From a virus (Duplodnaviria > Caudoviricetes), in IMG/VR virus record IMGVR_UViG_3300043786_001636, positions 1 to 57,007 of that record: DNA of 57,007 nt; one strand, 5' to 3'. Made by a program: the position numbers and the translations under genes. This document shows, one piece after another, positions 3,005-57,007 of this stretch; position 1 is the first letter of the stretch, and each line of letters starts with the position of its first letter. The notes beneath the pieces were generated by a model that was not told where the DNA came from, searched no databases, and saw only the letters and a list, made by a program, of their open reading frames with translations.

Positions 3005-3017
3005 CACCTTAAAAACA

Positions 3018-4661: not shown

Positions 4662-4693
4662 TTTCCCGTCCTGCCGACGGGCCATCCCACACA

Positions 4694-4723: not shown

Positions 4724-4729
4724 CGGGCC

Positions 4730-33845: not shown

Positions 33846-33852
33846 CCCGTAG

Positions 33853-35393: not shown

Positions 35394-35419
35394 CACAGGT
35401 TCAAATCCTGTACCGCGCA
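35394..35419 (+). mobile_element. attP: attP core candidate (3' end of a tRNA, possibly tRNA-Val)
   Basis: ACAGG-TTCAAAT-CCTGT T-arm, then ACCGCGC acceptor strand and discriminator A. No 5' tRNA half. About 90 bp upstream of the integrase. Confidence 0.8.
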
Positions 35420-35508
35420 TTTCCTCGGACCGCATTCTCAATGCCACGAAAAGTCAAACCTAACAGTGCGTTGACAAATCTGTCCGCAGATTGTCCGCGA
35501 GTTTGACC

Positions 35509-36612
35509 ATGCTGAAACCCGGAGAGGTCCACATCCGCGAAATTGGTCCCGGCACAGACAAATTTGACCGAGGCTACAGAGCGGTTGCAACCTTTCGGGC
35601 AAAGAAGAAACGGAAGACGAAATATTTCGCGTCCTTGCGTCAGGCGAAGCTTTGGGCGACGCAATGGCAAGCGCAGGTCATGGCTTCTGGGGCCGCCACC
35701 CCACTGAGCGTTGAGGAGGTTGCGGCAGTGGCGTCGGCCCGCGCAGAAATCGCCGCTTTAAAAAGCACGCTTTCCGAAGTCATCGATGCTGGACTGCCTA
35801 TCGTTCGGGCGCGCAGACTCGGGATCAGCGTGGCGAATTTGGCAGATTTGCGCATAAACAACATGAGATCGCAGGGCGGCAGCAAAGCGCATCTCGCAAA
35901 CTCCATTGCGAGGTTGCACAAATTTGCACAAGCGTTTGGGTCGCGGTCGGCAGCTTTGCTGAGCACAGCAGAAATCGATGCGTGGCTCACTGCGTTGCCA
36001 TGCTCACCGCGGACTCGATTTAATTTCCGGGACTCCATCAGCGCAATGTACGCAAACGGAATCCGCCTCGGACTGCTTGAGCAAAACCCCGTGGTCCGAA
36101 CTCTGCGACCCATTCTGCGGCAAGGGAAGATTGCCATTTTTACGCTGCCTCAGGTCCGCACGTTGCTGAGGATTGCGCCGACCGTCAACGGTTTGGGCTA
36201 CGTCGTGCTGGGTTTGTTTGCCGGCTTGCGGTCCTCTGAAACCATGCGGTTGAAACCAACCGATTTTGGCCCCGGGTGGGTGCGCATTGAATATGGCAAG
36301 ACGCGCGGATCGCGGCGCGTCGTCCGTCTCAATGAGACAGCCTTGGCTTGGTTGCCAGCCGACCCGCTGGCCGACCACGGCGACAAACGCCGCATCAAAC
36401 TGCATGCAGCCATGCCCTTCCCGTGGCCGATCAACGGATTGCGTCACTCGTTTGCCTCCTACCACTTGGCGCATTTTCGCGACCTTACCACGCTCGCTGC
36501 GGACATGGGGTCGTCGCCCGCGGTTGTGCGGCGCGACTACGCCGAATTGGTTTCCCCAGCCGACGCCGCTGAATTTTGGGCATTGCGCCCAACCGATTCG
36601 ACGACTGAGTGA
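35509..36612 (+). CDS. int: Tyrosine integrase
   Basis: Arm-binding N-terminus, core-binding domain, and catalytic GLRSSE, KT, NGLRHSFASY and MGSS..RRDY motifs. Confidence 0.9.
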   Translation: MLKPGEVHIREIGPGTDKFDRGYRAVATFRAKKKRKTKYFASLRQAKLWATQWQAQVMASGAATPLSVEEVAAVASARAEIAALKSTLSEVIDAGLPIVRARRLGISVANLADLRINNMRSQGGSKAHLANSIARLHKFAQAFGSRSAALLSTAEIDAWLTALPCSPRTRFNFRDSISAMYANGIRLGLLEQNPVVRTLRPILRQGKIAIFTLPQVRTLLRIAPTVNGLGYVVLGLFAGLRSSETMRLKPTDFGPGWVRIEYGKTRGSRRVVRLNETALAWLPADPLADHGDKRRIKLHAAMPFPWPINGLRHSFASYHLAHFRDLTTLAADMGSSPAVVRRDYAELVSPADAAEFWALRPTDSTTE

Positions 36613-37277
36613 AAGACCTCCGGGTTGACGTCTTTGGCGGTCTCCAACAATGCCCGCAGGGTCGCCGGGTCAGACAACCAAGAAGGGTCGGTTTCCTCGG
36701 GCGCGGTCACCGCTTGGTGCTCAATCCGCTGCGCGGGGCGCCCGATGAGATACTCGGCGTAATACATCATAGCTTTGTGCCTGGCGGCCCAGTCAGGGAA
36801 TTCATGCTGCTCACCGTCCTTAGTCAGCATGACCTTGGTTGCCTGCAACATGGAGCGCATGGTTTGCGCGACCTCATGCACGCTCACCGCAGCGTCGAGG
36901 CTGGAGCTCAAGGCTTCGCCGGCGCGCTTGGGGTCAACGATGACAAGGGCCGGCGCCTCTGCAACAAGGCCGTTTGGCATATGTTGGCCGCCGTAGTCAA
37001 TCAACGTAGCTTGCCCGCTGGCGATCTTGCCGGCAATCGCACAGGCTTGCTTTTCTCCAAAAGCCCCGACGCACTCAACCGGGGTTTTGGGAGGAGGATC
37101 GCCTCGCTCTATAGCGTAGTAGGCAATGACCCAAGGGTCAGAGGTTCCCCGCAAAAGCCCTGCTTCCCGGGCCGCGGCGCCGTTGTAGACCACGACGCGG
37201 TCGAGCGAGGCCGCCACAATGCGTTCCCAGACCCATCCGGGGTCCGTCCTGTAGAGGTGCTGTTTTCGTGGTTTCAT
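36537..37277 (-). CDS. Hypothetical protein, possible terminase small subunit
   Basis: C-terminal PDWAARHKA..YLIGRPAQRIEH resembles TerS-like proteins. Coupled to the upstream regulator. Confidence 0.45.
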   Translation of the reverse strand: MKPRKQHLYRTDPGWVWERIVAASLDRVVVYNGAAAREAGLLRGTSDPWVIAYYAIERGDPPPKTPVECVGAFGEKQACAIAGKIASGQATLIDYGGQHMPNGLVAEAPALVIVDPKRAGEALSSSLDAAVSVHEVAQTMRSMLQATKVMLTKDGEQHEFPDWAARHKAMMYYAEYLIGRPAQRIEHQAVTAPEETDPSWLSDPATLRALLETAKDVNPEVFHSVVESVGRNAQNSAASAGETNSA

Positions 37278-37558
37278 TGAGCTAATGCGATTTTGAGGAG
37301 GTGCGTCATGACGACGCGCACGCTGGTCTTGTTGGTTTCCGCCAAAACCTGCACGGTTTCGCGCAACGCTTCGTTGCGAATGAACAATTGCGAAGGTTGC
37401 AGCGGCGCCGGCAATTCGCCGAGGCTTGGCGGCAAATGCTGCACTGCTGCGGCGCAATGATGGGCGACCCAATTTGCAAGTGGGCGCCCCTCGACGTCGG
37501 CTCGTTGTTGCGCTCGTTGCCGCATGGCAGATTCTACTTGGAAACTAATAATCTTCAT
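37274..37558 (-). CDS. Putative ribbon-helix-helix (tandem) transcriptional regulator
   Basis: Two RHH-like units (ISFQVES..RADVEGRPLANW and QLFIRNE..LAETNKTSV). Divergent from the MarR-like gene. Confidence 0.55.
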   Translation of the reverse strand: MKIISFQVESAMRQRAQQRADVEGRPLANWVAHHCAAAVQHLPPSLGELPAPLQPSQLFIRNEALRETVQVLAETNKTSVRVVMTHLLKIALAQ

Positions 37559-37670
37559 TGTTTAACAATTGACAAATCCAAAATGACAAGGCATTGGGTC
37601 AAATGTGCATCGCGCACATTTTTTGTCAAAACCCTTTGACTTGTAACGTAATTCAACCAGTCTTCAGAAA
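37559..37670. promoter_or_regulatory. Divergent promoter/operator region (candidate lysis-lysogeny switch)
   Basis: AT-rich, with several TTGACA/TGTCAA boxes and the inverted repeat AAATGTGC-N5-GCACATTT. Confidence 0.6.
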
Positions 37671-37979
37671 ATGGTATCAGACACGACAGTCGCGACAGTC
37701 GCACGGTTTCAGGTGCTGAAGAAAGCCGGAGTCAACAGCATCTCGTCAGCAACAGTTCTGTTGCTGACGGCGAAGCAGAAAAACGCTTCGCTCACAATGC
37801 TGTCCCGCCAAATCGGGCACACCACCGCAGCCATTACCGGCGTAGTCGATGCCCTAGAAAGGGCGGGATTGGTCACGAGGGTGACTTCTTGCTGCGACCG
37901 CCGAGTCACCCTGCTCGCCCTAACGCAAAAGGGCGAAGCTGTAATCGCTGAATTTTATGAAGACACCACCATCGCCTGA
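37671..37979 (+). CDS. MarR-family winged-HTH regulator
   Basis: LSRQIGHTTAAITGVVDALERAGLVTR...DRRVTLLALTQKG is a MarR signature. Confidence 0.85.
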   Translation: MVSDTTVATVARFQVLKKAGVNSISSATVLLLTAKQKNASLTMLSRQIGHTTAAITGVVDALERAGLVTRVTSCCDRRVTLLALTQKGEAVIAEFYEDTTIA

Positions 37980-38199
37980 AATCGTCGTGGACGATTTCGC
38001 CCCGGACCCTGACCTGCTGCAGTGGGTCGAACAAAGTCAAATTCTGCTGGGCAATCCCGGCAATCACAACCCTCACGCCCTCTACTTTTGGGGGCGCTAC
38101 ACGGAATCGCTTATGCAACGATTCGCCGATGACGAGGAAAATCTCGCGTTTATGGACGCGCACCTTGAGGAATTGCGAGAAGAAAGGAGGGTCGCGTGA
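37957..38199 (+). CDS. Hypothetical protein
   Basis: 80 aa, coupled to neighbours, with a GGAGG RBS for the next gene at its end. Confidence 0.6.
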   Translation: MKTPPSPEIVVDDFAPDPDLLQWVEQSQILLGNPGNHNPHALYFWGRYTESLMQRFADDEENLAFMDAHLEELREERRVA

Positions 38200-39023
38200 G
38201 CGAAATCATTCCCGTAGGCCAAGAGAAACTTCTCGCCGACACGATAATGCCGGGCGCATCGATGCCCGAGTTAAAATTTTTTGCAGAAGTGTGCAACCGG
38301 ATGGGGCTTGACCCTTTCCGGCGCGAAATCCACGCAGTGAAACGCCGCGTCCAAGAAGGCGGTTCGTGGGTGGAACGATACGTTTTCCAAACCGGCATCG
38401 ACGGGTATCGGAAACGGGCGGCGGGCACTGGAGCTTACGCAGGCTCCGATGTGATTACCGAACCAGCCGATGCACCGATCCCAGCCATTGCGCGGGCCAC
38501 AGTCTGGCGCATGGTTTCCGGCCAACGGGTGGCCTTCACGGCATCCGCTCGTTGGAGCGAATACGTTCAAACGTCCAGAGAAGGCAAGCCAACCGCGATG
38601 TGGGCCAAGATGCCCCACACGATGCTGGAGAAGGTGGCGGAGGCCAAGGCTTTGCGGCGGGCCTTCCCCGACGAACTCAGCGGTCTTTACGCAGAGGAGG
38701 AAATGCAACAGGCCAGCAACCCGCCGTCGGCCCCGGCAACTCCAGCCCCGGTTGACTTGGTTGCGACCGTCAATGCCGCCACTCCTAAGCCTCAGCCCGC
38801 ACCCGCCAAAGCTCCGGCTGCCGCGAACCGGAGCGAGGCCGAGGACCTCATCAACCGCCGCATGGAGGAGGATGGAATTTCGGAGTCCGCCCTCAACGCT
38901 TGGGTTGAAAGCCAAACCAAGGGCGCCGTGGATCGCTGGCAAGACCTCCCCGACAAGCACCTGTGTGCTTTGGCCGGAGATGCCAAATGGTCTCAATTCA
39001 CCTCAACCCTTCCTGCAGCATGA
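38196..39023 (+). CDS. bet: Single-strand annealing recombinase Bet/RecT
   Basis: GLDPFRREIH, TGIDGYRKRA and W.KMPHTMLEKVAEAKALRRAFP motifs. Confidence 0.9.
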   Translation: MSEIIPVGQEKLLADTIMPGASMPELKFFAEVCNRMGLDPFRREIHAVKRRVQEGGSWVERYVFQTGIDGYRKRAAGTGAYAGSDVITEPADAPIPAIARATVWRMVSGQRVAFTASARWSEYVQTSREGKPTAMWAKMPHTMLEKVAEAKALRRAFPDELSGLYAEEEMQQASNPPSAPATPAPVDLVATVNAATPKPQPAPAKAPAAANRSEAEDLINRRMEEDGISESALNAWVESQTKGAVDRWQDLPDKHLCALAGDAKWSQFTSTLPAA

Positions 39024-40162
39024 AGGAGGAACACGCATACCTCGCCCCGTTTTTTGCTCCGGGCGGCAAAAGCTGCCTGATCCCCGACATGCATGCCTCG
39101 GAATACCGGGCCGTCCCGGGGATCAACCCGAGCCTCGTGAAAAAAGTCCGCTCTTCGGGGCTCTACGCAGCCCTTGCGGACATGCGCCGGGAGGATCACC
39201 TCGCCCGGGGGTTGGCTGACCCCTACCTGTCGCTGCACAAGCGCAGCGAGGGCACGCCGGCCCACTTTGAGATCGGGACGTTGATCCATTCGCTGGTTCT
39301 TGAACCGGACAAAATTGACCGGGATTACGCTGTTGTGAGCGATTCCATGCTGCGTGACATCATGGCCGCCGCCAAGGGACGCCTCGCTGCGGAACTAGTT
39401 TACAATGCGAATTGGTCCGAGGCCAAGGCGTGGAAATCGGCGCACGGGGTCAACCCGGCAAGCGATGCCGAAAAGGCAGAGGTCATCGCGTCTCGCGTGG
39501 TCAACCTTCTCGCCGGGGAGAAAGCCAGCGAGCAACCGGAGTTCATTGCGTGGAGCGCAGAACAAAAAGCCATCAACAAAACGGTGATATGGCAATCGCG
39601 GCTGGATCAGATCCGCAACGTGGTTGACCGAGCCTTGTCCTACCCGGTCAACCGCCAGGTGTTTGAGTTGCTTGGCAATCAGGGGGCGCTTATTGAGCCA
39701 AGCATTTTTGGAGTCCTTGATGCGGCGCGGACCAAAGGACGGGCGGACTTCGTGACTGCTCCGGTCCTCGGGTCCGTGAAGACCTTGGGCAAAGGCAAGC
39801 GTCTGGAAGCGTTCGACCGTGAAACTGCTCTGTTGGGATACGATATCGCCGAGGGAGCCTACATCGGAATGCTCCGCGATTGCGGGGTCAAGATCGACTA
39901 CGTGGTCTATCTGGTCCTCGAAACGGAAATCCCCTACCGTTCAGTGAGTTGGGTTGAAAGCCTCAACGCCAGCGAAGGCAAGCGGTTCGAGTGGGGCGAA
40001 GACCAGTTCCGTCGAACGGTTGCTGAGATGGCAAAGGCGCACGAGACCGGCGTCCTCGATCCTATGCTGGCGAGCAATGTGCCGCTCCCGCTTCCCGACC
40101 CACGTCCTGGCTACCGTTGCCAATTTGAACCTGAACTTGAACCTGATCATGAAATCGATTGA
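39020..40162 (+). CDS. RecE/ExoVIII-like PD-(D/E)XK exonuclease
   Basis: EYRAVPGINPS, GTLIHSLVLEP, KGRAD..VKT and GYD..Y motifs; adjacent to bet. Confidence 0.8.
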   Translation: MKEEHAYLAPFFAPGGKSCLIPDMHASEYRAVPGINPSLVKKVRSSGLYAALADMRREDHLARGLADPYLSLHKRSEGTPAHFEIGTLIHSLVLEPDKIDRDYAVVSDSMLRDIMAAAKGRLAAELVYNANWSEAKAWKSAHGVNPASDAEKAEVIASRVVNLLAGEKASEQPEFIAWSAEQKAINKTVIWQSRLDQIRNVVDRALSYPVNRQVFELLGNQGALIEPSIFGVLDAARTKGRADFVTAPVLGSVKTLGKGKRLEAFDRETALLGYDIAEGAYIGMLRDCGVKIDYVVYLVLETEIPYRSVSWVESLNASEGKRFEWGEDQFRRTVAEMAKAHETGVLDPMLASNVPLPLPDPRPGYRCQFEPELEPDHEID

Positions 40163-40331
40163 GCAAACAAACTATTACCTCGCCATGCTCAGGCTGGGCG
40201 AAGTGCTGGAGGTCGTCGAGGAGTCTCTGAGCCTTGCAGAGACTCTCAGAGAACCGGAAGCCGCCGACATGGTGAGCTTGGCCAAGGGCATGGTTTTGAA
40301 CGCATTGACCATTATCAACGAAATCAAATGA
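40149..40331 (+). CDS. Hypothetical protein
   Basis: 60 aa, overlapping neighbours in the early operon. Confidence 0.55.
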   Translation: MKSIEQTNYYLAMLRLGEVLEVVEESLSLAETLREPEAADMVSLAKGMVLNALTIINEIK

Positions 40332-40576
40332 CGCTCTACACACACACCGAGCGCTTCGGCGCCACGCGGTTTTACGTTCGGATTGCAGACGGAATTCTTG
40401 TTGTCATGGACGATGACGAGGAAAGGCTCGTCCACGTTCCGCTCGGGACGAGCCACGATGATGCGACCCTGCAGGACGCGATTGCCGATGTCATCAATGC
40501 GGTTGCTGGCCGAGCGCGGCAAAACGCATTGGACGATGCGTGGGAGGCGGCCAGCAACGCGATTTCAGGTCTATGA
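40328..40576 (+). CDS. Hypothetical protein
   Basis: 82 aa, ATGA-coupled. Confidence 0.6.
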   Translation: MTLYTHTERFGATRFYVRIADGILVVMDDDEERLVHVPLGTSHDDATLQDAIADVINAVAGRARQNALDDAWEAASNAISGL

Positions 40577-40827
40577 ACACCATGAACACCGACACACCGT
40601 TGACGGACGGCTACGAGGGCGAATGCCCACTTGGGTTTCGCCCGGTCTCCTTCTGTCGGGAATTGGAACGGGAAAGAAACCGTCTGGAAGAAGACCGACT
40701 CTCCTTGCTGGAAGAGTTGGCTCTTCTGCGCGCGGAATCCAGTCGATTCCGGGCCGGGCTGCCGATGCGCGAGCCGCGCAAGGTAACCTCCATTGCGGAA
40801 CTCTTTGGAGAGTTGTTTGCGTCATGA
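40573..40827 (+). CDS. Hypothetical protein
   Basis: TDTPLTD..FCRELERE motif common in phage early genes; ATGA-coupled. Confidence 0.6.
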   Translation: MNTMNTDTPLTDGYEGECPLGFRPVSFCRELERERNRLEEDRLSLLEELALLRAESSRFRAGLPMREPRKVTSIAELFGELFAS

Positions 40828-41321
40828 AACTATACGACACCAACGAAACGGAAGACCTGTGGACCCTCGCCGAAGCGCGGGAAGCCGCGAAAGCCGGGAT
40901 GGAGCAAGCCGCCGAAACATGCGGCGACCCGTGGCTGGACTACGCGCACGGTTTCATCCTCGACCATTTGGACCGCCGCCAGTTTCTCCACGTTGATGAT
41001 TTGTGGGAGACGGGGCTTGACGTTCCGGCCAACCTCAAGGGACTTGGCCAAGTCATCGCTCGGCTGAAGCGCGAGGGGCACATTCAGCCGATTCGGATCG
41101 CAAACATCCCTCACGCCTTTGCGGCCCGCCCTTCGGTCCGAAGCAACGGGCAGGTGAAACTGGTCTGGAAATCGATGCGCTACCGAGGACCGATGCGGGA
41201 AGCTGGTGAGCTTCACGAGCTTTTAGCTGACATGCGGGAGGCGTTGACGGCGCTCATGCCGTCGGCCCCGGACAAAGATGCCGTGGCAAAGTTGATCGTG
41301 CGAGCGGGAGGGCAACCATGA
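40824..41321 (+). CDS. Hypothetical protein (winged-helix-like)
   Basis: ATG 40824 coupled to the upstream stop; LGQVIARLKREGHI..VWKS motif. Confidence 0.6.
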   Translation: MKLYDTNETEDLWTLAEAREAAKAGMEQAAETCGDPWLDYAHGFILDHLDRRQFLHVDDLWETGLDVPANLKGLGQVIARLKREGHIQPIRIANIPHAFAARPSVRSNGQVKLVWKSMRYRGPMREAGELHELLADMREALTALMPSAPDKDAVAKLIVRAGGQP

Positions 41322-41325
41322 ATTT

Positions 41326-41625
41326 ATGAAACCGATACGAATCAAAATCAATCTCAGCAAGCTCGACAAGGGCGCATTTTTCGAAAGCACATCCGGCGAC
41401 AAATGGCTCGACCTCGTGGCCTGGCCGACAAAAGAGAGTCGCTACGGCGAAACCCACTCCCTCAAACAAAGCTACCCAGCAGGAGACGATCGCGCGAAAG
41501 GTTCGCCGTTCGTCGGAAGTTTGACTTTGCCAGACGCTCAGCCATCCGGTCAGCCATCTACCCGTCAAGCCAGCCAGCCGATCCCGTTCGACCAACCCAC
41601 TCAAACCGATGACATCCCGTTCTAA
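41326..41625 (+). CDS. ssb: Single-stranded DNA-binding protein
   Basis: Short OB-like core, disordered linker and acidic DDIPF tail. Confidence 0.7.
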   Translation: MKPIRIKINLSKLDKGAFFESTSGDKWLDLVAWPTKESRYGETHSLKQSYPAGDDRAKGSPFVGSLTLPDAQPSGQPSTRQASQPIPFDQPTQTDDIPF

Positions 41626-41639
41626 AGCGACGGCGGTTG
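41603..41639. repeat. 37-bp direct repeat, copy 1
   Basis: AAACCGATGACATCCCGTTCTAAAGCGACGGCGGTTG; 35/37 identical to 42406-42442. Confidence 0.9.
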
Positions 41640-42415
41640 AGCCCTCAGGAAGGGTTTTATGCCGCTTCTCCTGCGGTGCCGCTTCCGCTGTCGCTACCAA
41701 GCTGGCAATTGAGAAATACGGCACGGTAGAAATCAACTACTCTGACACTGGCAGCGAACACCCAGACAATGCCCGATTCATCGCGGACTGCGAGCGATGG
41801 TTCGGCCAGAAGGTCACGATCACCAAAAGCGACAAATACCGCGACATCTGGGAAGTGTTCGAGAAAAAGCGGTTCCTCGTCTCGCACCAAGGAGCGCCAT
41901 GCACGGCTGAAATGAAACGCATTCCCGGCGATTCCGTTTGGACAATCGGCGACCGGGAGATTTTCGGGTATACCGTCGAAGAGCGCCATCGGGTGGAGCA
42001 ATGGAAGCGTCAGAATTTTGAGCGGATAATCGAGACCCCGCTGATTGAGCGAAACCTGACTAAAGAAGATTGTTTTGGCATCCTGGACCGCGTAGGAATT
42101 GAGCTTCCGGCGATGTATAAACTAGGGTTTCGTAATAACAACTGCATTGGATGCGTGAAGGCCCGCGACAATCTGGACTACTGGAAAAGGGTGCGGAAGC
42201 ATTTCCCCGAAATCTTCGAGCGCATGGCAAAGCTGGAAAGAGACATCGGAACGACAATCAACCGTATCACAAAGGCCGGGGAACGCTCGCCAATCTTCCT
42301 CGACGAAATCGAAGAAGGAGACCCGAAAGGCTTGGACCCGAACATCCAGTGCGGGTTGTTTTGCATGGCCGAGGCCGACCAATTTGACCGACCAGCAACC
42401 GACCGAAACCGATGA
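41609..42415 (+). CDS. PAPS-reductase-like PP-loop protein with an Fe-S-type Cys cluster
   Basis: FSCGAASA PP-loop variant, EHPDN.RF, PC, LGFRNNNCIGCVK and CGLFC motifs. Confidence 0.8.
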   Translation: MTSRSKATAVEPSGRVLCRFSCGAASAVATKLAIEKYGTVEINYSDTGSEHPDNARFIADCERWFGQKVTITKSDKYRDIWEVFEKKRFLVSHQGAPCTAEMKRIPGDSVWTIGDREIFGYTVEERHRVEQWKRQNFERIIETPLIERNLTKEDCFGILDRVGIELPAMYKLGFRNNNCIGCVKARDNLDYWKRVRKHFPEIFERMAKLERDIGTTINRITKAGERSPIFLDEIEEGDPKGLDPNIQCGLFCMAEADQFDRPATDRNR

Positions 42416-42442
42416 CATCCCGTTCTGAAACGACGGCGGTTG
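42406..42442. repeat. 37-bp direct repeat, copy 2
   Basis: AAACCGATGACATCCCGTTCTGAAACGACGGCGGTTG. Confidence 0.9.
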
Positions 42443-42610
42443 TTACCGGCCCGAAACTTTAATAAGAAACCCTGTTATTAAAGAAAACAAAACCAGATTT
42501 TAATGTAAATTGCTCCACTTGTTTCGTTGAGGCCAATCCAGTTTGACGAAAAGTTGCGCTCCTTTATTTTTAGAACCGCTTCGGCACTGCCGTTGCGAAG
42601 CATCGACTCG

Positions 42611-44710
42611 GTGAAAAGACTGTTTACAACAAGCCAACGGCTTGCCTTGGTTATCGCCCAAGGTGGGTGCTGCGCAATTTGCGGCGCTCGTTTGGATCGG
42701 ACCTTTCACGCCGATCATAGAATCCCTTTTTCCAAAGGCGGAAAAACGGAGCTTCGCAACGGACAGGCCGTTTGCGCGACCTGTAACCTCAAAAAATCAA
42801 ACAAAATGATTCAAGCCGAAGCTCTGCCTTCAGTTTATACGTTTAAATCTTTACCTGCTCACCGCTTCTGGCAGGATGAGTGCCTCAGTCAGTTTATCCG
42901 TCATGCGCACCGCGACGACGGGCAAAACTTTTCTATTATGGCATGGCCTGGAGCTGGGAAGACGCGCTTGGCTTTGGCGGCATTTCTGACGGCGCGGAAA
43001 CTCAAGCTGGTCAAAAAATGTCTGTGGGTGGTTCCCTCTACCACGCTGCGCATTGATATCGGCCGTGAAGATGGAGGGGGCAACCGGCGCGAGGATTGCT
43101 CTGACGCTGTGTGGGAAGGCAAGCATTCCTCCCCTCCTTGGGGAGTGAAGTGTAATGTCGGCAACGCGGCGATGAAGGCGATGGAAGCTTTCCAGACTGG
43201 TCACTGGCCCGGCGGGGATGACATCGCGCTGTGGGTGATAACCTACGGTCAGCTTCACGCAGAAGCCGATATGTTTGCCGCCCTATGTGGCGCTCATGAG
43301 ACGATGCTAATTCTTGACGAAGTCCACCACGTTCAAGATGAAGGCAAGTGGGGGCAGTCGGTGCGTATTGTGGGCGAAGAATGCGTTTTAAGAATCCCGA
43401 TGTCGGGGACGCTTTTTACTACGACCGGATCGCCGATCCCGTTTGTAAACTACGACGACGGGACCAATGACAACGGGCAAACCGTTCGGGTATTCAAGCC
43501 CAGCTATTCGTTCGGGATGTCCAAAGCGCTCAAGGCGCAGCCCGGAGAAATCACGCCATCCATCCGCCCCGTCACCTTTATCAAGGTCAACGGCGAGGGT
43601 GAGTTGATTCTGCGCAAACCTGGGAGCGGCGAACTCTATACCAAGACCATCGAGATCAGCGAAGATGGCAACGCATCGGAAAAGGTCTCCTATCTCCTGC
43701 ACCGCGATTCTGCCATGGTGGAAGTCATGTTGACGCAGGGGGTAAAGGAACTCAATCGCTACCGGAACGTCGAGATGGACGGCAGTGCTGGCGGACTGAT
43801 TGTCTGCAAGGATGGCGATCATGCGCGGGCTATCTGCGAGGTGTTGCGAACCAAGTTCAATGAAGAGCCGATTCTTGTGTTGCATGACACACCCGGATCG
43901 GCGGAAGCGATTTCTGATTTCAGGACCGGGCGCAACCGCTGGTTGGTCACGGTCCGAATGGTCTCCGAGGGCGTAGACATCCGGCGTTTGCGAGTGCTGG
44001 TCTATTTGACCAACTATATGACTCAGCTTTTTCTGATTCAGGTTTTGGGCCGGATTTGGCGCTGGGATCCAAAGCTCAACGGAGGGCAAGACGGGACCGC
44101 GATTATTTACGCGCATCCCCAGCTCATGAAGTGGGTCGCCGAAATGGAGGAGATGACCTACGAGGCCATTGTCAAAGAAGGCTCTGGGCCGGAAGGCGAT
44201 GACGACAACGAAAACGACGATCCTCCGTGGTGCGGTCCTGGGCCTGAGCGTCACGAGCTAATTGATGCCACGACTGCGGCCGAAATCGCAGGCGGCTACG
44301 TACAAGGCGGCGTTGACTACGATGAACTGATGCGGGTTGAAGCCAATGAGGTTCATGCGGCATTGAATACGGTCAATCCCGGGATTGGCATTAATACCAT
44401 TATCTCGGTATTAAAGGCCCGGAAGGTTGCTTCAGGTGAATTGTTTTCCTTGGTCGGCACCTCAAAGCAACCCACCCGCAGGCAAACAAATTTGGAAGCG
44501 TTGGTGGGGCGGGCAGCGTCCGAGATCCGCGCCAATCCCCCGGCCGATCTTGGGGAAGAGAATCCTTTTGCCTACGTCAATCGCAAGATTAACGCTCAAA
44601 TGGGCGTCTCTCAGTGGCGCGGCGAGATCGCCAGTCGTGCGGAATTTGATAAACGCCGCGACCTGCTCAAAACCATGCTCATTCGCCTGAAAGATGGAAG
44701 CTGGAACTGA
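42611..44710 (+). CDS. HNH endonuclease fused to an SF2 (Res/SSL2-like) helicase
   Basis: HNH motif CAICG..HADHRIPFSKGG..N..C..CN; helicase motifs PGAGKT, DEVHH, SGT, EGVD and QVLGRIWR. Likely GTG start at 42611. Confidence 0.85.
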   Translation: MKRLFTTSQRLALVIAQGGCCAICGARLDRTFHADHRIPFSKGGKTELRNGQAVCATCNLKKSNKMIQAEALPSVYTFKSLPAHRFWQDECLSQFIRHAHRDDGQNFSIMAWPGAGKTRLALAAFLTARKLKLVKKCLWVVPSTTLRIDIGREDGGGNRREDCSDAVWEGKHSSPPWGVKCNVGNAAMKAMEAFQTGHWPGGDDIALWVITYGQLHAEADMFAALCGAHETMLILDEVHHVQDEGKWGQSVRIVGEECVLRIPMSGTLFTTTGSPIPFVNYDDGTNDNGQTVRVFKPSYSFGMSKALKAQPGEITPSIRPVTFIKVNGEGELILRKPGSGELYTKTIEISEDGNASEKVSYLLHRDSAMVEVMLTQGVKELNRYRNVEMDGSAGGLIVCKDGDHARAICEVLRTKFNEEPILVLHDTPGSAEAISDFRTGRNRWLVTVRMVSEGVDIRRLRVLVYLTNYMTQLFLIQVLGRIWRWDPKLNGGQDGTAIIYAHPQLMKWVAEMEEMTYEAIVKEGSGPEGDDDNENDDPPWCGPGPERHELIDATTAAEIAGGYVQGGVDYDELMRVEANEVHAALNTVNPGIGINTIISVLKARKVASGELFSLVGTSKQPTRRQTNLEALVGRAASEIRANPPADLGEENPFAYVNRKINAQMGVSQWRGEIASRAEFDKRRDLLKTMLIRLKDGSWN

Positions 44711-45326
44711 AGACTACACCTTGACCCCGGCGCAAGTGATGGAGCTGTATCATCGCGAATCTGCGTCCACCTTAAACTGCCTCCGGGCTTTGCCTACGAC
44801 CATCATTCTCATGATGACCAAGACGCACCCGGACGGCACGCCATGGTGGCAACGAGTGGAGTTTCCCGACCGGTCCTTTACCTACAAGTCCAAGATCGAC
44901 TTCGTGCGGTCCAACTCGCGTGGAGGGCTTGGCATGACCGTGGAGGTACTCACAAACATGCTGGACTCTGCCGCCGAACTGGTGAGCCGGGCCGATGTGG
45001 AGAAGGCCCGTAGGCTGATCTTTGAGGCGGAGGATGTGATCCCGCACAAGCCTGGGCCAAATGGTGACAATGTAAGCATCTCGCAACACGGCAACTCCGC
45101 CGAATACCTGCGCCGTCGATTGAAGCGGGACGCTCCGGCGCTCTGGGAAGACGTGGTGAGCGGAGTCAAAAGCGCCAGAGCGGCAGCCATTGAAGCCGGG
45201 ATCGTGAAGGTCAAGACGCCAGTGGAGGTTGCGACTGCCAGCCTTGCCAAGCTGACGGACGAGGAGTTTGCAACGGTGGTCGCCATTGAATGGCAGCGGC
45301 GAGGACTTGCGAATCAAGCCATTTGA
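44694..45326 (+). CDS. Hypothetical DNA-binding protein
   Basis: C-terminal HGNSAEYLRRRLKRDAP..SARAAAIEAGI helical motif; overlaps the helicase stop. Confidence 0.65.
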   Translation: MEAGTEDYTLTPAQVMELYHRESASTLNCLRALPTTIILMMTKTHPDGTPWWQRVEFPDRSFTYKSKIDFVRSNSRGGLGMTVEVLTNMLDSAAELVSRADVEKARRLIFEAEDVIPHKPGPNGDNVSISQHGNSAEYLRRRLKRDAPALWEDVVSGVKSARAAAIEAGIVKVKTPVEVATASLAKLTDEEFATVVAIEWQRRGLANQAI

Positions 45327-45438
45327 CGCCCTCTACGCTTGCAATTCACGCGCGTGCGCAAACTGCGGGACACCGCAGCCTTCATGCGAGGACGAGCCAA
45401 AACTTTGCAACTCACGCAAATGAAGTAAATTGCCAGCA

Positions 45439-46032
45439 ATGCCCGGGAAGCCAGCAAAACAAACACCGAAACGCGATTCGGTCTATTATTCCGACGAGGA
45501 AATGGAACTGATACTGTCGGCCATATCCCGCCGCACCAAGACTGGGTTGCGCGACCGGGCCGCCGTGCTGGTCATGTGGCGCGGCATGCTGCGCGTGAAC
45601 GAATGTTTGCAGGTGCGTATAGCTGACATCGATTTTAAGACTCGCGAATTGCGAGTGCTGCACGGGAAAGGCGACCGCGCCCGCACCGTGGCGCTGCCAC
45701 CATCTGCGATTGAGGCGATTCAAGCCTGGCTAGAGGTCCGCAAGAAACTCCCAGCCACAAAACTGGACCCGTTGTTTTGCTCGTTATACGGCAAATGTTT
45801 AGACCCGTCTCATTTTCGACATAAACTTCCGCGGATCGCCGCTAAAATTGACCTCGGCAAACGACTTCACGCGCACGGGTTCCGCCATTCCGGGGCCGTA
45901 AGAATGAAACGCCGCGGCATCAACACCATGCAGATATCGTCCGGCCTAGGTCACGCCAACATACAAACGACGGAGACCTATTTGCACCACTTGCGCAACG
46001 ACGATGTCATTGCAATCATGCGCGAGGAATGA
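45439..46032 (+). CDS. Minimal tyrosine recombinase (catalytic domain only)
   Basis: About 197 aa with the complete catalytic set: MLRVNE, GKG, HGFRH and LGH..TTETY. Confidence 0.9.
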   Translation: MPGKPAKQTPKRDSVYYSDEEMELILSAISRRTKTGLRDRAAVLVMWRGMLRVNECLQVRIADIDFKTRELRVLHGKGDRARTVALPPSAIEAIQAWLEVRKKLPATKLDPLFCSLYGKCLDPSHFRHKLPRIAAKIDLGKRLHAHGFRHSGAVRMKRRGINTMQISSGLGHANIQTTETYLHHLRNDDVIAIMREE

Positions 46033-46088
46033 CCTTGTGCTTATCAAAATGGCTAGAATTGCAAGAATTTGCAGCCCATAACTTTCAT

Positions 46089-46122
46089 ATGAAACACGTT
46101 TCTGTCAAAAAACGTGTTTCAT
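46089..46122. other. 34-bp 13-8-13 inverted repeat (lox-like site or operator)
   Basis: ATGAAACACGTTT-CTGTCAAA-AAACGTGTTTCAT with perfect arms, starting 57 bp after the recombinase stop. Confidence 0.6.
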
Positions 46123-46135
46123 TTGCACGTTGGAA

Positions 46136-46163
46136 TTGCAGCCAGAGAAAAACGTGATAGTTT
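46136..46163 (+). promoter_or_regulatory. Putative promoter TTGCAG-N16-TAGTTT with extended TG
   Basis: Shares TTGCAGC-N5-AAAAACGTGATA with 33818-33841. Confidence 0.55.
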
Positions 46164-46187
46164 CGGGTATCAGACACGACCACGACC

Positions 46188-46433
46188 ATGAACATTGAAA
46201 GCATTGAAAGCACCATGTTTATCGAGCGAGACGACTTCGACATCGAAGTCGTCATCACCGCCGAATACGAGCCGGGTTGTCCCGGCCAACGGTGGGACCG
46301 AAATTTTGGCGGCACTCCACCTGCCCCACCTTGCTTGTGGGGTGTCGCGGCAACTTACGCTGGGAAAAAGATTGTCCTCTCTGCTCGCGAAATGGAGCGA
46401 GCCGAAGAAATTCTGTGGGAAAAGGTGGCATGA
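46188..46433 (+). CDS. Hypothetical protein
   Basis: 81 aa, acidic; YEPG..G..D..PP.PP motif common in small phage proteins. Confidence 0.65.
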   Translation: MNIESIESTMFIERDDFDIEVVITAEYEPGCPGQRWDRNFGGTPPAPPCLWGVAATYAGKKIVLSAREMERAEEILWEKVA

Positions 46434-47059
46434 GAAACGTGAACCTGCCCAAAGCCCGCGTATGGGTCCGCCGAGACGCTTTCGGCGAAAGCCCCAACGA
46501 GTTTGAGCCGGCCTGGCTTATCTCCGCAAGGGCATTGCGCAACCGCCCGTTCGCGTTTCAGGTCTGGGCCGACAGATTCGCGGCCTGCTACGACAAAATC
46601 CCACCGCACTGCCTCTACTGGAGGCTGCCGGAAGGTGGCGATGAAGCGTTGCCGCTGCACAAGGTGCAAATGTGGGAATGCCTCAGCGGCTCCATTGAGT
46701 GCTGGCAGAAAACGCAACTAGCTGACGTCCCGGTCATCGTCAATTTGGGTGGTGGCCAGCGCATCGGCGGCCACTATTGGTTCACGCTTGACTTCATACC
46801 TGAGGGCCAGGGGCAGGGTATGATTGACGTCGGCGAAGCCGACATCCTTGAAGAACACAAGGAGGCCAACGTCATCCGGCTTGAGAACGGGCAGGTCGCC
46901 ATTTACCCAAACAACAGACTCAAATGGCTTCCGCTTTCTCTGACTCCACCAGGCGCCGCCACCGCAGTGCCGGGATGGAAGGTCGCAACCAATGCCCAGT
47001 GGGACGATTGGTGGGACGACTCAGCCGAGATCTTGGGCGACCAAGATTTCGCCTATTGA
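46430..47059 (+). CDS. Conserved hypothetical phage protein
   Basis: Motifs QMWEC, YWFTLD, EHK and NGQVAIYPNNRLKW; ATGA-coupled. Confidence 0.7.
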   Translation: MRNVNLPKARVWVRRDAFGESPNEFEPAWLISARALRNRPFAFQVWADRFAACYDKIPPHCLYWRLPEGGDEALPLHKVQMWECLSGSIECWQKTQLADVPVIVNLGGGQRIGGHYWFTLDFIPEGQGQGMIDVGEADILEEHKEANVIRLENGQVAIYPNNRLKWLPLSLTPPGAATAVPGWKVATNAQWDDWWDDSAEILGDQDFAY

Positions 47060-47336
47060 TCAATCGACTTCGCGAAAGTTTGAAAAGGCAAAACAGAGAT
47101 CCATTGCGGTTTTTGGCAACTCAGCTTTGGCTGAGAAACCGCGCCCATGCTTTTGCCCGCCTATTTTTGCAATGTGAGGATTTCCGCTTGCGGAAAAGCT
47201 CACGTTGTTGAGTGTGCCAAAAACCAAAAGGGGCGCCCTGTTTTGACCCCGGGCGCCCCTCAACCGATGATGAAGACATTACACCGGGACCGGAGTCCCG
47301 TCAACTTTGCGTCTCGTTTTTGCAAAGGGAGGCGCC

Positions 47337-47564
47337 ATGCGTGACCGCGTCACGGTCCTCATGGAAATCGTCCGCGCCTTGCAGGACGATCTTCGCGCCG
47401 CGCAAAAGGAGCGCGACACCGCCTGCAGTCTGCTGCAACGACTGATCGGCCTGGCAAATTACGCTGCCGAGGAAGACCCGGACCCAAACATCCTTGAGCG
47501 TCAAGGCCGCATTCTCGTCGAGGACGCCAAGAATTTCACCCAACACCACAACCATGAACAATGA
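47337..47564 (+). CDS. Hypothetical coiled-coil protein
   Basis: GGGAGG RBS upstream of ATG 47337. Confidence 0.6.
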   Translation: MRDRVTVLMEIVRALQDDLRAAQKERDTACSLLQRLIGLANYAAEEDPDPNILERQGRILVEDAKNFTQHHNHEQ

Positions 47565-47826
47565 CCTACTATTTGCCCTCCCTGAATGCCCCTCTCCAAG
47601 GATGCGCTGGAAAGAGAAACACCGGGTTGATCAGCGACTTCTCCCCGACGGGCGCATCCGCTGGATCGGCACGTTCCCGCTGACGGGCGGGTTCCTTCTG
47701 CGGCCCGACAAGGTTTACGAAACCGAGGCCAGGTGGTCGGTCGTCGTCTCCCCGGAGACCGATGAAATTGATGCCCTTTTGGAACTCGCTCTTGCTGCAG
47801 GAGCCAAACTCTGGAACGAGCTATGA
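47554..47826 (+). CDS. Hypothetical protein
   Basis: 90 aa, coupled to the replication gene. Confidence 0.6.
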   Translation: MNNDLLFALPECPSPRMRWKEKHRVDQRLLPDGRIRWIGTFPLTGGFLLRPDKVYETEARWSVVVSPETDEIDALLELALAAGAKLWNEL

Positions 47827-48806
47827 GCGGCTGGATCAAAATGAGGACATGCTTGTCCCGAACCCCGGAGGTCTACCAGCTTGCCCGGGAAACCGGACTG
47901 GACCGTTTCGCTGTCGTGGGCCGTCTTCTGGAGGTGTGGGCGTGGTTCGACACCATGACGGAGGATGGTAACGCTGTCGGCGTTACTTTTGTAACGCTCG
48001 ATGATGTCGCATGTAACGCTGGCTTTTCGCAAGCAATGTCAAATTGCGGATGGTTGATCGAAACAGAGGCCGGTTTGAGCGTTCCGAAGTTTGAAAAACA
48101 CAACTCCGAGACCGCCAAAAAAAGGGCAAATACGGCCAACCGAGTGGCCCGCCATCGGGCAAAAAATGAGAAACCGACGCCAAATTCGGCTGTAACGCTC
48201 GACGAAAAAAATGTAACGCCAACAGCGTTACCTAGAATAGAGAAGAGAAGAGAAGAAAAAGAATGTACCCCCATACCCCCAAGGGGGCGCACAGACAGCA
48301 GCACTTTGTTCGACTTGCCGACAACGCCGGGGACGGCAAAGGTTGCGCCACCAGCAAAAGCCGAGGTCGCCAACCTGTTCGAAATCCTCTGGGAAATGTG
48401 CCCCACAAAAAAAGGCCGTGGAGCCGCCCAGAAGGCATGGGCAAGGGTGGTCCGCTGTCATGACCCTCGGGACATCGTGCGACGCCTCACAAGGTATCTG
48501 GCGTGCGAACAAGAGCGGTATTCGGCGCGACCCGACGATTACCAGGCGCTGCATCTGTCAACTTGGCTCAACCAAGAGAGGTTTTTGGACGAGCCGACCC
48601 GGGTGCCGGTTCCCCCCGCCCGCTTGTTGCAATCCGCGTGGGTTGCCAGCGGACGCAACGGGTCCGGGCCACCAAAATGGGAGGTTCTGGCGCAACAACC
48701 GGAGGTCGTCGCTGACATGCAGCGCTCGAGTCTCGCGTTCAACCTGTTCCTCGAGGGGCTCGAGGAATGCGTGCGGATCGTTTACCCCAACGCCGAAATC
48801 GTATGA
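47823..48806 (+). CDS. Phage replication initiator
   Basis: WIKMR..VVGRL..VW.W N-terminus, linker ending EKRREEK, and W..P.K..A..AW..TWLNQERF C-domain. Upstream of dnaB. Confidence 0.8.
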   Translation: MSGWIKMRTCLSRTPEVYQLARETGLDRFAVVGRLLEVWAWFDTMTEDGNAVGVTFVTLDDVACNAGFSQAMSNCGWLIETEAGLSVPKFEKHNSETAKKRANTANRVARHRAKNEKPTPNSAVTLDEKNVTPTALPRIEKRREEKECTPIPPRGRTDSSTLFDLPTTPGTAKVAPPAKAEVANLFEILWEMCPTKKGRGAAQKAWARVVRCHDPRDIVRRLTRYLACEQERYSARPDDYQALHLSTWLNQERFLDEPTRVPVPPARLLQSAWVASGRNGSGPPKWEVLAQQPEVVADMQRSSLAFNLFLEGLEECVRIVYPNAEIV

Positions 48807-50173
48807 TCAACGAGACTGCGGAAAAGGGGTTTGTCTCCTGCGTCTTGCAGGGGGCTCGTGACGTCCCCACGGTCGGCCCCGACTGGTTCGTGAACACAAC
48901 CTATTGGACCTTGTTGCAGGAATGGCAAAATGCGGACCAACCCGGTCTGGTCGCCCTCGTGGCGCGGCTGCAGCAGCAGGGTCTGCTGGAGCAGATTCCT
49001 GCCGCGCTAGTCAACGAGCTCTGGTTCTTTGCGCCGGCGGCGACCGAACTGCGCTACTACCACAAAGCGCTTGCGAAGGCGCGACTGAAGCGTCGGCAAC
49101 AGACGTTTGCCGCAGAGGTGCTACGGTCTGTCGCGTCTGATACCGACCCGGACCAACTTGCTGCCGATATGGAGGTCAAAGTTTTGGCTCTGCGCGACGA
49201 CCTCAGCGCGCAAGCTGCGGGCGTGCCGTCGCTGAGAGAGGCGGCAATGCAGACGTTCGACGACCTCGAAAAGCGCGTCGTGGCCAAGCGCAAAGGGGTG
49301 TGGCCCGGGATTCCGTCCGGCATCGCCCCGCTCGACGATTTGACCAGCGGGTTCCAAGCTGGGCGAGTCTATGTGTTTGGTGCCCGACCCGGCATGGGCA
49401 AGACATCGCTGCTACGCCAGATCATGCTGCGGGCCGCCGCTTCTGAGTTTCCGGTTTACTTCCTCAACCTTGAAATGTCTGCGGCGCAGACGTTTGAGGC
49501 GTTGCTGGCCACCGAAGGGAAAGTCGATTCCGGGGCGATGCAGGCGGGTGAATTGACGGCCTCTGACATGGCGCGAATTCAGCACACTGCTGAACGCCTC
49601 CTAAAAATGCCCATCTTCGTCGATGATCGGTTTTTGACCGTGCCACAAATTGAGGCGACCGTTCGTCGCATGGTGCGGGAGCACAAAATCAAGATGTTCT
49701 GTCTGGACTACATCCAGCTCGTCCCGGCCAGCAACAGCGAGGAGGAGCGCAACACGCTCATGCGCATCTCGGCTGCGTCGCACGCCATGGTCCGCATCGC
49801 CAAGCAGAACAACATCCCGGTCATAGTGCTGGCCCAACTTAACCGCGAGGCCGTGGTCGATTCCGCGCGCAACCTCACCACGAGGCACATACGCGATTGC
49901 GGCCAGATTGAGCAGGACGCTTGGTTCATCGGCCTCATGGGCCCCGGCGATGACGCGGCGAAAGAGGAGAAGAAAGAACAGGTGGACCGATACGGAAACA
50001 AAGTCGCCACCTCTGTGCCTGTTGAGAAACAAACCAACGGTTCCCCCGACAACCGGATCGGCATGAATGTGGTCAAGAACCGCACGGGAAAATCCTCTGC
50101 CTTTTTCGAGATGACGTTCAACGGTCCTCACCTGCGATTTTCTGTCTGTGAAGAAACCAACAAAAACCGATGA
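48803..50173 (+). CDS. dnaB: Replicative DnaB-like helicase
   Basis: GARPGMGKT, LEMS, DYIQL, LAQLNR, IEQDA and KNR.G motifs. Confidence 0.93.
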   Translation: MINETAEKGFVSCVLQGARDVPTVGPDWFVNTTYWTLLQEWQNADQPGLVALVARLQQQGLLEQIPAALVNELWFFAPAATELRYYHKALAKARLKRRQQTFAAEVLRSVASDTDPDQLAADMEVKVLALRDDLSAQAAGVPSLREAAMQTFDDLEKRVVAKRKGVWPGIPSGIAPLDDLTSGFQAGRVYVFGARPGMGKTSLLRQIMLRAAASEFPVYFLNLEMSAAQTFEALLATEGKVDSGAMQAGELTASDMARIQHTAERLLKMPIFVDDRFLTVPQIEATVRRMVREHKIKMFCLDYIQLVPASNSEEERNTLMRISAASHAMVRIAKQNNIPVIVLAQLNREAVVDSARNLTTRHIRDCGQIEQDAWFIGLMGPGDDAAKEEKKEQVDRYGNKVATSVPVEKQTNGSPDNRIGMNVVKNRTGKSSAFFEMTFNGPHLRFSVCEETNKNR

Positions 50174-56302: not shown

Positions 56303-57007
56303 CCGTACTTCAAATGCTTGTGCAATCCCTCGACGGCACCAAAACGCCCGACCCGGCGGCTTTGACGCTCGACCAGCAGGGTGTGGTCATGGCTTCGCTC
56401 AACGCGGCCCTGCAAGCCTATTACGAGGCCGCGCCGGACATTTACAAACGGACGACCGGATGGCAGCCCGTCGGGGCACCCCGCGAAGCGGTCGGGTTGT
56501 CCATCGCGGCGCAATCCACACTGAACACCGGCACTCCGTTTCCGGCAGCAGACCGAGGGAAAACCATTCGGCTTGGCAACCAATACAACGAGATCGCCGG
56601 AGCGGCTGAGTTGGTCCGACCCAACGACAACGCAACGACCATCACGCAAGGGACCATTTACGACGACACCATCGCTTTTTTTGACGTGTCCGCAGAGCGA
56701 ATCGTGGGAGACCCTCGGTGCATTGCGGGGTCGGAAACTTGGCCCTTGCACCGCATTGAGGGCAACAGAGCGCGGGCGTATTACGGCTACCAGTCCGCCT
56801 CGGGATTCAATCGTCTCACCGCCAACTTCGGATGGCAGGACCGCATTGCCGGAGATCGACCGGCTTTCTATTCCATTTTGCCTGTGGGCGGGAGCGTGGC
56901 CACCGGGCCAACAGATGCCACCTTGTTGTTGCGTCTCGACCCGTTGCCGACGCGCCCCTGTACCATCGAAATTACGTTTTCGCAAGCTCCGCCGACGTTG
57001 ACGGTTG
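56299..57007 (+). CDS. 5' part of the origin-spanning adaptor/ring-like protein (continues to 351)
   Basis: ATG 56299 overlaps the upstream TGA. Open frame MTVLQMLVQSL..SLNAALQAYY..RPAFY runs through the junction. Missing from the ORF track. Confidence 0.7.
   Translation, partial: MTVLQMLVQSLDGTKTPDPAALTLDQQGVVMASLNAALQAYYEAAPDIYKRTTGWQPVGAPREAVGLSIAAQSTLNTGTPFPAADRGKTIRLGNQYNEIAGAAELVRPNDNATTITQGTIYDDTIAFFDVSAERIVGDPRCIAGSETWPLHRIEGNRARAYYGYQSASGFNRLTANFGWQDRIAGDRPAFYSILPVGGSVATGPTDATLLLRLDPLPTRPCTIEITFSQAPPTLTV
56881..57007. repeat. Terminal direct repeat, copy 2 (circular assembly overlap)
   Basis: Identical to 1-127. Confidence 0.95.

Follow-up and report, generated by a model that had tools for sequence, protein, structure and literature searches.

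Tyrosine recombinases with a palindromic core site beside their own gene are a known kind, of which XerS/difSL, XerH/difH and Cre/loxP are examples. In phage P1, Cre serves dimer resolution and cyclisation. The sites that lie beside resolvase genes, such as Tn3 res and the TnpI/IRS modules, have a dual role, in resolution and in regulation of the resolvase gene. The single-recombinase Xer modules comprise XerS/difSL of streptococci and lactococci, XerH/difH of epsilon-proteobacteria and the archaeal XerA/dif, and the first two are described, in the available part of PMC2731167, as one recombinase and one palindromic site joined in a gene-linked module. In the classification of tyrosine recombinases, as given in the available part of PMC8138268, the 'simple' enzymes have both domains, the core-binding domain included. 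Here we analysed a window, meaning the whole 57,007-bp stretch of the IMG/VR virus record IMGVR_UViG_3300043786_001636 (Duplodnaviria; Caudoviricetes), which is a complete record, for a 197-aa tyrosine recombinase that consists of the catalytic domain only and for the perfect palindrome that begins shortly after its stop codon. An earlier note had suggested that the two might form a compact recombinase/target pair for genome circularisation or dimer resolution. In comparison with the systems above, the absence of the core-binding domain across a whole clade outside FimB/FimE, the conserved geometry of the associated dyads and the occurrence of site arrays appear to be new.

The recombinase gene (45439..46032, + strand) starts at ATG 45439 and ends with the stop codon TGA at 46030-46032, which gives 197 aa; an alternative start, TTG 45430, would give 200 aa. 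Because the open frame is at most 202 aa long, an N-terminal domain cannot be accommodated. PF00589 was the only Pfam domain found (residues 19-185, E=2.5e-34, 119 bits against a gathering cut-off of 27.1), and no N-terminal core-binding domain, such as PF02899, was detected in the 197-aa protein. The protein has the full set of catalytic residues (R52, K77, H146, R149, H172 and Y181), each of which is invariant or conserved to at least 90% in an alignment of 25 short homologues (A2). The description in the earlier note of a recombinase of about 197 aa with the full catalytic set and no N-terminal domain is borne out by these results. In the AlphaFold2 model (mean pLDDT 87.6), the best structural matches were XerA (TM 0.80 on the query) and the XerH-difH complex, in both cases with the C-terminal domains only, and superposition on XerA and XerH gave TM values of 0.77-0.81 on the query vs 0.43-0.59 on the targets. 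Since the Xer matches cover only the C-terminal domains of the targets, the N-terminal clamp domain is genuinely missing from the recombinase. Its N-terminus falls at the interdomain linker of the Xer proteins, and the best sequence match among solved structures was to residues 136-311 of XerA. Based on its sequence, we propose that the gene product is catalytically active, as a tyrosine recombinase of 197 aa that has an Xer-like catalytic domain and no core-binding domain.

In both sequence and fold, the catalytic domain of the window enzyme is closest to XerA, XerH and XerD. The Xer NCBIfam models gave scores of 117 (cut-off 220) for XerA, 112 (335) for XerC, 101 (330) for XerD and 58 (267) for XerS, all far below their cut-offs, and the FimB/FimE models scored 68.4 against 221 and 48.9 against 222, below XerA, XerC and XerD. 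The likeness to the Xer modules includes, as known here from the sequence, one dif-like palindromic site per replicon, which lies 57 bp from the gene in the window. The window enzyme differs from them in that it has 197 aa and no core-binding domain, whereas Xer enzymes have about 280-360 aa, and in that it is carried by a phage and its relatives by multi-copy mobile elements, rather than being a housekeeping gene for the chromosomal terminus. We know of no FtsK link for the short recombinases. The resemblance to Cre/loxP lies in a 34-bp site with perfect 13-bp arms and an asymmetric 8-bp spacer, present once in a phage genome that encodes the would-be homomeric enzyme. However, Cre has 343 aa including an N-terminal clamp domain, the loxP sequence is unrelated to the window site, and Cre chains matched the profile of short homologues (A2) only remotely (E ~1e-8), ranking below the Xer proteins. 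FimB and FimE resemble the window enzyme in size and in having no core-binding domain, and the NCBIfam invertase model aligns end to end, residues 14-181 to positions 10-176 of 200 (E=6e-19), but these invertases depend on a pair of inverted sites bounding the segment that they flip, and the window genome has one site. The family of dyads described below also resembles the resolvase-adjacent sites (TnpI/IRS of Tn4430 and Tn5401, Tn3 res/tnpR) in lying in the recombinase's own upstream region, whereas the window site is single and downstream of the gene.

The palindrome at 46089-46122 is a perfect 13-8-13 repeat of 34 bp, the first base of which is the 57th after the recombinase stop codon, as the earlier note had reported. 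It is composed of the left arm ATGAAACACGTTT (46089..46101), a putative monomer-binding site whose core CACGTTT is as far from the dyad centre as it is in the dyads of two Solirubrobacterales relatives (L123 and L132), the asymmetric 8-bp spacer CTGTCAAA (46102..46109), a putative crossover region around which the ACG-N14-CGT distance equals that of the family dyads, and the right arm AAACGTGTTTCAT (46110..46122), which is the perfect reverse complement of the left arm. The perfect repeat of the arms is not extendable but continues at 86% over 22 nt. The number of perfect 13-bp inverted repeats expected at one fixed spacing is 57007 x 4^-13 = 8.5e-4 per genome, and the palindrome is therefore not a chance occurrence. 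The exact arm sequence was found in the 57-kb genome in these two copies only; a search allowing up to 3 mismatches gave 9 matches, of which the other 7 all had 3 mismatches. No second palindrome was found by a pattern search of the whole 57 kb, the best other scores for family-type dyads elsewhere in the genome were within the chance range, and the exact core had 0 matches elsewhere in IMG/VR. The site is thus present in a single copy in the genome, in agreement with the single copy seen before. A telomere-resolvase (protelomerase) target was considered and rejected: the targets of protelomerases are palindromic through the centre and the enzymes are large and multi-domain, whereas the spacer CTGTCAAA lacks self-complementarity and the recombinase is 197 aa long.

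Two further features were noticed around the gene and the palindrome. A 42-aa open reading frame (ORF) at 46029-46157 (+ strand), which overlaps the recombinase stop codon by ATGA, spans the palindrome; it is probably spurious, because it is not kept in the close relative L003. A 19-nt inverted repeat of 84% identity lies on both sides of the recombinase gene (45306-45324 and 46047-46065). A reading of this repeat as cassette ends was dropped, the repeat being built round the self-complementary TTGCAA and at chance level by estimate.

The window recombinase belongs to a large group of short proteins. In word-based and exhaustive protein searches, 110 of the best 150 of the 50%-identity representatives were no longer than 260 aa (median 225), relatives at 35-44% identity were many and also short, and most open frames of the fetched relatives with at least 34% identity (IMG/VR and GTDB) were 190-260 aa long. 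The relatives came from phage contigs and from metagenome-assembled genomes (MAGs) of Planctomycetota (Phycisphaerae, Pirellulales), Actinomycetota (Acidimicrobiia, Solirubrobacterales), Myxococcota and others. The marks of the clade are a start at the linker between the core-binding (CB) and catalytic (CAT) domains and the motifs VLHGKGDRxRTV and HxHGFRH, all of which are found in the window protein (alignment A2), and in a maximum-likelihood tree of 68 proteins the window protein is placed inside the clade. As judged from their sequences, the short recombinases form a large real clade of Xer-like enzymes of about 190-260 aa and are not truncated genes. Exact-phrase searches of open-access texts returned no description of small, minimal, short or truncated tyrosine recombinases or of ones without a core-binding domain. 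There was no conserved neighbour or partner protein, as the upstream neighbours of the 68 loci were heterogeneous and terminase domains occurred in 5-6 of 108 neighbour proteins. Several representatives (P0054, P0064, P0067, P0072, P0081, P0106 and others) are 430-870 aa long and match the query in two separate stretches; each could have two catalytic domains fused in tandem or could result from the merging of gene calls.

To compare the sites of the family, we surveyed the dyads at 68 non-redundant loci, which were obtained by clustering 89 short loci at 90% identity and dropping 21 near-duplicates. At many loci a dyad with 11-bp arms and a 4-10-bp centre was located just upstream of the gene, with half-sites like AGTTACGCTTT, and the CG dinucleotides of the two arms were 14 bases apart in 16 of the 17 sites read, whatever the nominal lengths of arm and spacer. 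Strict dyads, defined as WCG-N14-CGW with at least 9 of 11 symmetric positions, were observed 12 times in 13.05 kb of upstream DNA of the 68 loci (0.92 per kb), once in 13.5 kb of downstream DNA, where the one instance is the window palindrome, 0 times in 41.7 kb within genes, and 5 times in 263 kb of other DNA (0.019 per kb), and two of those five look genuine and lie farther from the gene. With a weight matrix built from 14 seed loci and a threshold of 7.0, set for 0.1 chance matches per region, a dyad above threshold was present within 300 bp upstream at 33 of the 68 loci, against about 6.8 expected. These positive loci comprised 13 of the 14 seeds, scored by leave-one-out, and 20 of the 54 non-seeds, 5 of which are close kin of seeds.

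The types of half-site group with the clades of recombinases in the maximum-likelihood tree of the 68 proteins. Half-sites like AGTTACGC were found in Phycisphaerae and GTCACGTT in Solirubrobacterales, and further types were GTGAYGC in one Acidimicrobiia group and AGTTWCGG in Myxococcota. Common descent adds to this grouping; yet the arms are recognisable where the surrounding intergenic DNA is unalignable. Across the family, gene and dyad are linked and the dyads share one geometry. The earlier note had envisaged that homologous recombinase genes might be flanked by a co-varying palindrome, and at the level of the family this was found, in the form of dyads of fixed geometry, types matched to clades and a one-to-one pairing of gene and site in a single genome, described next.

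In the Phycisphaeraceae MAG G001, there are as many sites as short recombinase genes, ten of each, with an internal stop in one of the genes. Genes and sites are paired throughout, the site being about 50-120 bp 5' of its gene, and a search of that genome allowing up to 3 mismatches revealed no orphan site. Nine of the 6-bp centres read GCAGGA and the tenth GTAGGA, in a constant orientation to the gene, and the dyads are accompanied by an extra direct half-site and a second palindrome. The elements that carry them are 75-88% identical overall. On contig C9 of this genome (loci L170-L177), elements of 12-13 kb were observed (for example 2509-14582, 36874-49627, 90055-102633 and 128549-141648), with the short recombinase gene at one end, followed by the dyad and then by large and small terminase genes; they may be satellite-like or similar to gene transfer agents. 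The extent of the elements was measured on contig C9 only, which has at least four of them, while the ten recombinase genes are counted genome-wide. A single site per replicon was also seen in G006, a complete 122-kb phage with exactly one site.

Pairs and arrays of sites were found in Solirubrobacterales. In three genomes of this order, all five loci of one subfamily have a gene-proximal site and at least one more site 0.4-5 kb away, and one further pair has no gene of that subfamily nearby. The pairs and arrays of the type TCACG-N14-CGTGA beside short recombinase genes were observed at L132, on contigs C423 and C203 of G012, and on contigs C7, C9 and C12 of G013. At L132, four sites (46, 714, 1765 and 2209, with spacings of 668, 1051 and 444 bp) share the same central orientation (RTGGMS), and the small ORFs between them are of no known family. 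As the sites stand 0.4-5 kb apart, the arrays do not have an operator-like layout and instead resemble integron cassettes or dif modules. By analogy, the Solirubrobacterales dyads may be recombination sites, and the arrays may have arisen by repeated site-specific insertion. The dif modules of Acinetobacter plasmids, in the available part of PMC6449649, offer the comparison for such arrays around short modules, with the difference that dif modules use the host XerC/XerD whereas each Solirubrobacterales array has its own minimal recombinase.

The window palindrome was then compared with the dyads of this family. It keeps ACG-N14-CGT and 10 of the 11 symmetric positions, and its core CACGTTT-N8-AAACGTG is identical to that of the L123 site and near to other Solirubrobacterales sites. 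The chance of the coincidence with the L123 core was estimated at 1e-3 to 1e-2, allowing several site types and registers. Because the geometry of the family is kept and the core equals that of the L123 site, the palindrome is most likely the recombinase's own site, and from this sequence evidence we put its being the core recombination site of the enzyme at about even chances. As to the recombinase/target pair claimed earlier, the dyad linkage in the family, the geometry and the 14-base core common to one relative support the pairing itself, but its use for genome circularisation is unlikely, because the site is outside the 127-bp terminal overlap of the record, which also sets it apart from Cre/loxP in P1. 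We infer that the window protein binds and cleaves the palindrome and exchanges strands there, and its biological role is inferred likewise.

Several observations weigh against this assignment. The matrix score of the window site is 4.2, below the threshold of 7.0 and at about the 99.9th percentile of the background; the score is low on account of the outer positions, where the window site has AAA and the consensus AGT, and only the inner core CACGTTT matches the half-site consensus AGTnaCGcTTt. The window site is downstream of its gene, while the enrichment in the family is upstream only, and downstream matrix-positive loci (6 of 68) equal the chance expectation. No upstream dyad above threshold was found at 35 of the 68 loci, including a 14-row, Acidimicrobiia-dominated clade labelled site-free. 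The window clade sits on a very long branch of 1.83 substitutions per site, and its function may therefore have changed. In the closest relatives (L002-L005, 78% identity) the nucleotide similarity ends at the stop codon; the corresponding position has an 8-bp dyad with one mismatch, TCACCTTT-N8-AATGGTGA, which by estimate is of borderline significance (p ~0.06 per 150-bp region), and no window-type site was found in the L002-L005 records, one of which is a complete genome. FimB and FimE, which are recombinases without a core-binding domain, both need accessory factors. Contigs from four other lake metagenome runs span the palindrome colinearly, with no joints or loose ends, although these are low-depth contigs and the check means only that no alternative junction was seen.

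Other observations bear on these points. The downstream position is unusual but not unique, since the sole strong site of L023-L025 lies 2.4 kb downstream of the gene. In L002-L005, ACACG is changed to TCACC symmetrically in both arms with N14 kept, which hints at a constraint on the dyad; co-variation within the window clade rests on one other lineage, of 4 nearly identical loci, and a metagenome scan for more relatives of the window clade gave nothing beyond the L003 contig. The gene order around the recombinase also differs between the lineages: the gene assigned to the 'ferredoxin' PHROG is downstream of the recombinase in the window and upstream in the L002-L005 relatives, and the downstream genes differ. 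A promoter-like CGTGATA motif adjoins the dyad in the window and in the closest relatives alike, and within this small clade the dyad thus goes with both the recombinase gene and the promoter-like motif.

The low matrix score and the weak conservation in the nearest relatives would also be expected if the palindrome were unrelated to the recombinase, either as an RNA hairpin that ends the upstream operon or as a site for another factor, with a likeness to the family arising by chance. The palindrome indeed lies between two transcription units, and the region folds well as RNA (-23.6 kcal/mol, z = -2.99). However, there is no T-run after the stem, a terminator scan did not call the palindrome, and Rfam returned for this region only hairpin-like matches far below the gathering scores, so that a terminator was rejected. 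The estimate of about 1e-3 to 1e-2 for an exact L123 core to occur by chance beside this very gene also speaks against it, and we regard an origin unconnected with the recombinase as improbable.

The DNA downstream of the palindrome has the features of a control region. A promoter-like element of the extended -10 type, TTGCAG-N13-TGATAGTTT (46136..46163, + strand), precedes the downstream operon, in which genes for a replication initiator and a DnaB helicase are located directly 3' of the recombinase and palindrome region. The element is part of a 34-nt repeat, TTGCAG-N13-TGATA(C/G)TT..., with copies at 33818-33851 and 46136-46169; a generic sigma-70 scan did not call it, and from the repeated sequence we take 46136-46163 as a putative phage promoter. 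The next ORF (ATG 46188) is closely preceded by the 15-mer GGTATCAGACACGAC (46166..46180, + strand), a repeated motif of leader or control type. It has three exact and two one-mismatch copies, against 0.93 expected (29674, 37673 and 46166 on the + strand; 49130 and 55586 on the - strand), it is inverted in L002 after the same promoter-like motif, and it could be a control site.

This arrangement raises the possibility that the palindrome is an operator only, through which the recombinase or another phage regulator controls the promoter at 46136-46163 without strand exchange. The palindrome ends 14 bp before the promoter-like -35 element, and CACGTT/AACGTG does recur next door, as had been noticed earlier: a further CACGTT directly follows the right arm at 46126..46131, where it could be an accessory half-site or chance, and AAACGTG is at 46150-46156 in the -10 region. 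A half-site-like AAACACGTTT at 29614-29623 stands upstream of another copy of the GGTATCAGACACGAC motif, and the dyads of most relatives, being located in the recombinase's own promoter region, would autoregulate. There is also a precedent in SroF, an integrase-fold repressor of SPbeta-like phage, described like YopR as a phage protein of tyrosine-recombinase fold that binds specific DNA near the promoters it regulates, in the available part of 10.1101/2025.11.27.690993. According to the same part of that source, however, SroF retains CB and CAT but no longer has the catalytic tyrosine, and its 24-bp operator, which is long and asymmetric, is bound by a monomer, whereas the window enzyme has no CB domain, keeps Y181 and is accompanied by a perfect dyad, and the catalytic residues are kept across the clade. 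The CACGTTT heptamer is not over-represented in the genome (10 found vs 11.4 expected), and AAACGTGATA in the -10 region is a likelier promoter element than half-site, because it is common to the 33818 repeat, which has no palindrome. The arrays with ORFs between sites 0.4-5 kb apart, and the site that lies 2.4 kb from its gene, are also unlike an operator layout. We therefore consider a purely regulatory palindrome to be unlikely, though it deserves more weight than a palindrome with no connection to the recombinase; an operator role may also co-exist with recombination. An operator-only palindrome would still provide a second example of phage gene control by a recombinase fold, here with the catalytic residues kept.

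A lone site beside a recombinase gene in a free phage genome also has the look of an attP-int module, in which the small recombinase would serve as an additional integrase, directing the phage to a comparable simple site on the host genome or on another mobile element. In keeping with this, the short recombinase is the last conserved gene of the 12-13-kb terminase-bearing elements of G001, and site pairs around gene-containing segments, as on contig C423 of G012, resemble attL/attR. However, the phage already encodes a divergent integrase of 373 aa (35491-36612; phrog_1, E=1.8e-16, with a weak PF00589 match), which is adjoined by a tRNA-like sequence. The latter, at 35395-35419, about 70 bp 5' of the integrase gene, resembles a T-arm and acceptor 3' strand and, read by eye, is ordered as a 5-bp stem, the loop TTCAAAT, a return stem, seven bases and a discriminator; it was not called by ARAGORN or Rfam. 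A T-arm/acceptor sequence by an integrase gene is the usual signature of a tRNA-targeting attP. The sequence at 35395-35419 is thus probably the attP core for integration of the phage into a tRNA gene, and the 373-aa integrase probably handles chromosomal integration. In addition, each of the ten sites of G001 is intact, single and located inside its element, neither a second nor a hybrid one being found there when up to 3 mismatches were allowed, there are 0 other exact copies of the window core in IMG/VR, and, as weak evidence, no junction was seen at the palindrome in the contigs of the four lake runs. We consider an attP function of the palindrome rather improbable, somewhat less so than a lack of any relation to the recombinase.

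If the palindrome is the core site of the recombinase, one monomer would occupy each 13-bp arm, with key contacts around ACACG, Y181 would attack at either edge of the asymmetric centre, and strands would be swapped across 6-8 bp between two sites in synapsis. Because the phage genome offers only one site and encodes a 373-aa integrase separately, the pair would act between copies of the site on different molecules or within a multimer, and the partners would be either sister copies within multimers or an identical site carried by a second replicon. The RecT/exonuclease pair encoded in the window phage would make such multimers. The outcome would be multimer resolution of circular phage DNA or exchange with an identical site elsewhere. 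Multimer resolution is the role we favour; in a wider sense, either multimer resolution or an exchange of modules would be our preferred role, perhaps together with control of a promoter. The promoter ahead of the replication operon could respond to occupancy of the palindrome and of the CACGTT/AACGTG copies next to it.

More broadly, the phage pair could be a member of a widespread and undescribed system, in which clampless recombinases of about 200 aa each recombine their own 28-34-bp dyad, and in which the actinobacterial arrays would be cassette-like or 'dif-module'-like, served by their own enzyme instead of the host XerCD. We offer this wider view tentatively and hold it with less confidence than the assignment of the palindrome to its recombinase. 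If it is true, a 0.7-kb gene and site would make a self-contained pair, much smaller than Cre/loxP and with many natural specificity variants. If the enzymes are active, a simple palindromic site would be recombined without a core-binding domain, many natural pairs of an enzyme of about 200 aa and a site of about 30 bp would be at hand for compact genome engineering, and phages, the phage-like elements of Planctomycetota and the cassette-like arrays of Solirubrobacterales would possess a layer of site-specific recombination that has so far gone unrecognised.

The window genome encodes a large terminase and a portal protein, and contigs near-identical to its sequence were found in several lake and freshwater metagenome runs. 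Positions 1-127 and 56881-57007 form an exact 127-bp terminal direct repeat, which we read as the assembly overlap of a circular or circularly permuted genome with a true length of about 56,880 bp. Upstream of the recombinase, the gene order is a 727-aa HNH/helicase ORF, a 210-aa ORF and then the recombinase. The 727-aa protein (42527-44710, + strand) has an N-terminal HNH nuclease motif and a helicase core, and the ORF directly 5' of the recombinase (44694-45326) had no Pfam, NCBIfam or PHROG match. On the minus strand, a single open frame of 5,579 aa (6413-23152) takes up about 29% of the genome and holds a 300-bp direct repeat with 98% identity (9506-9805 and 12533-12832).

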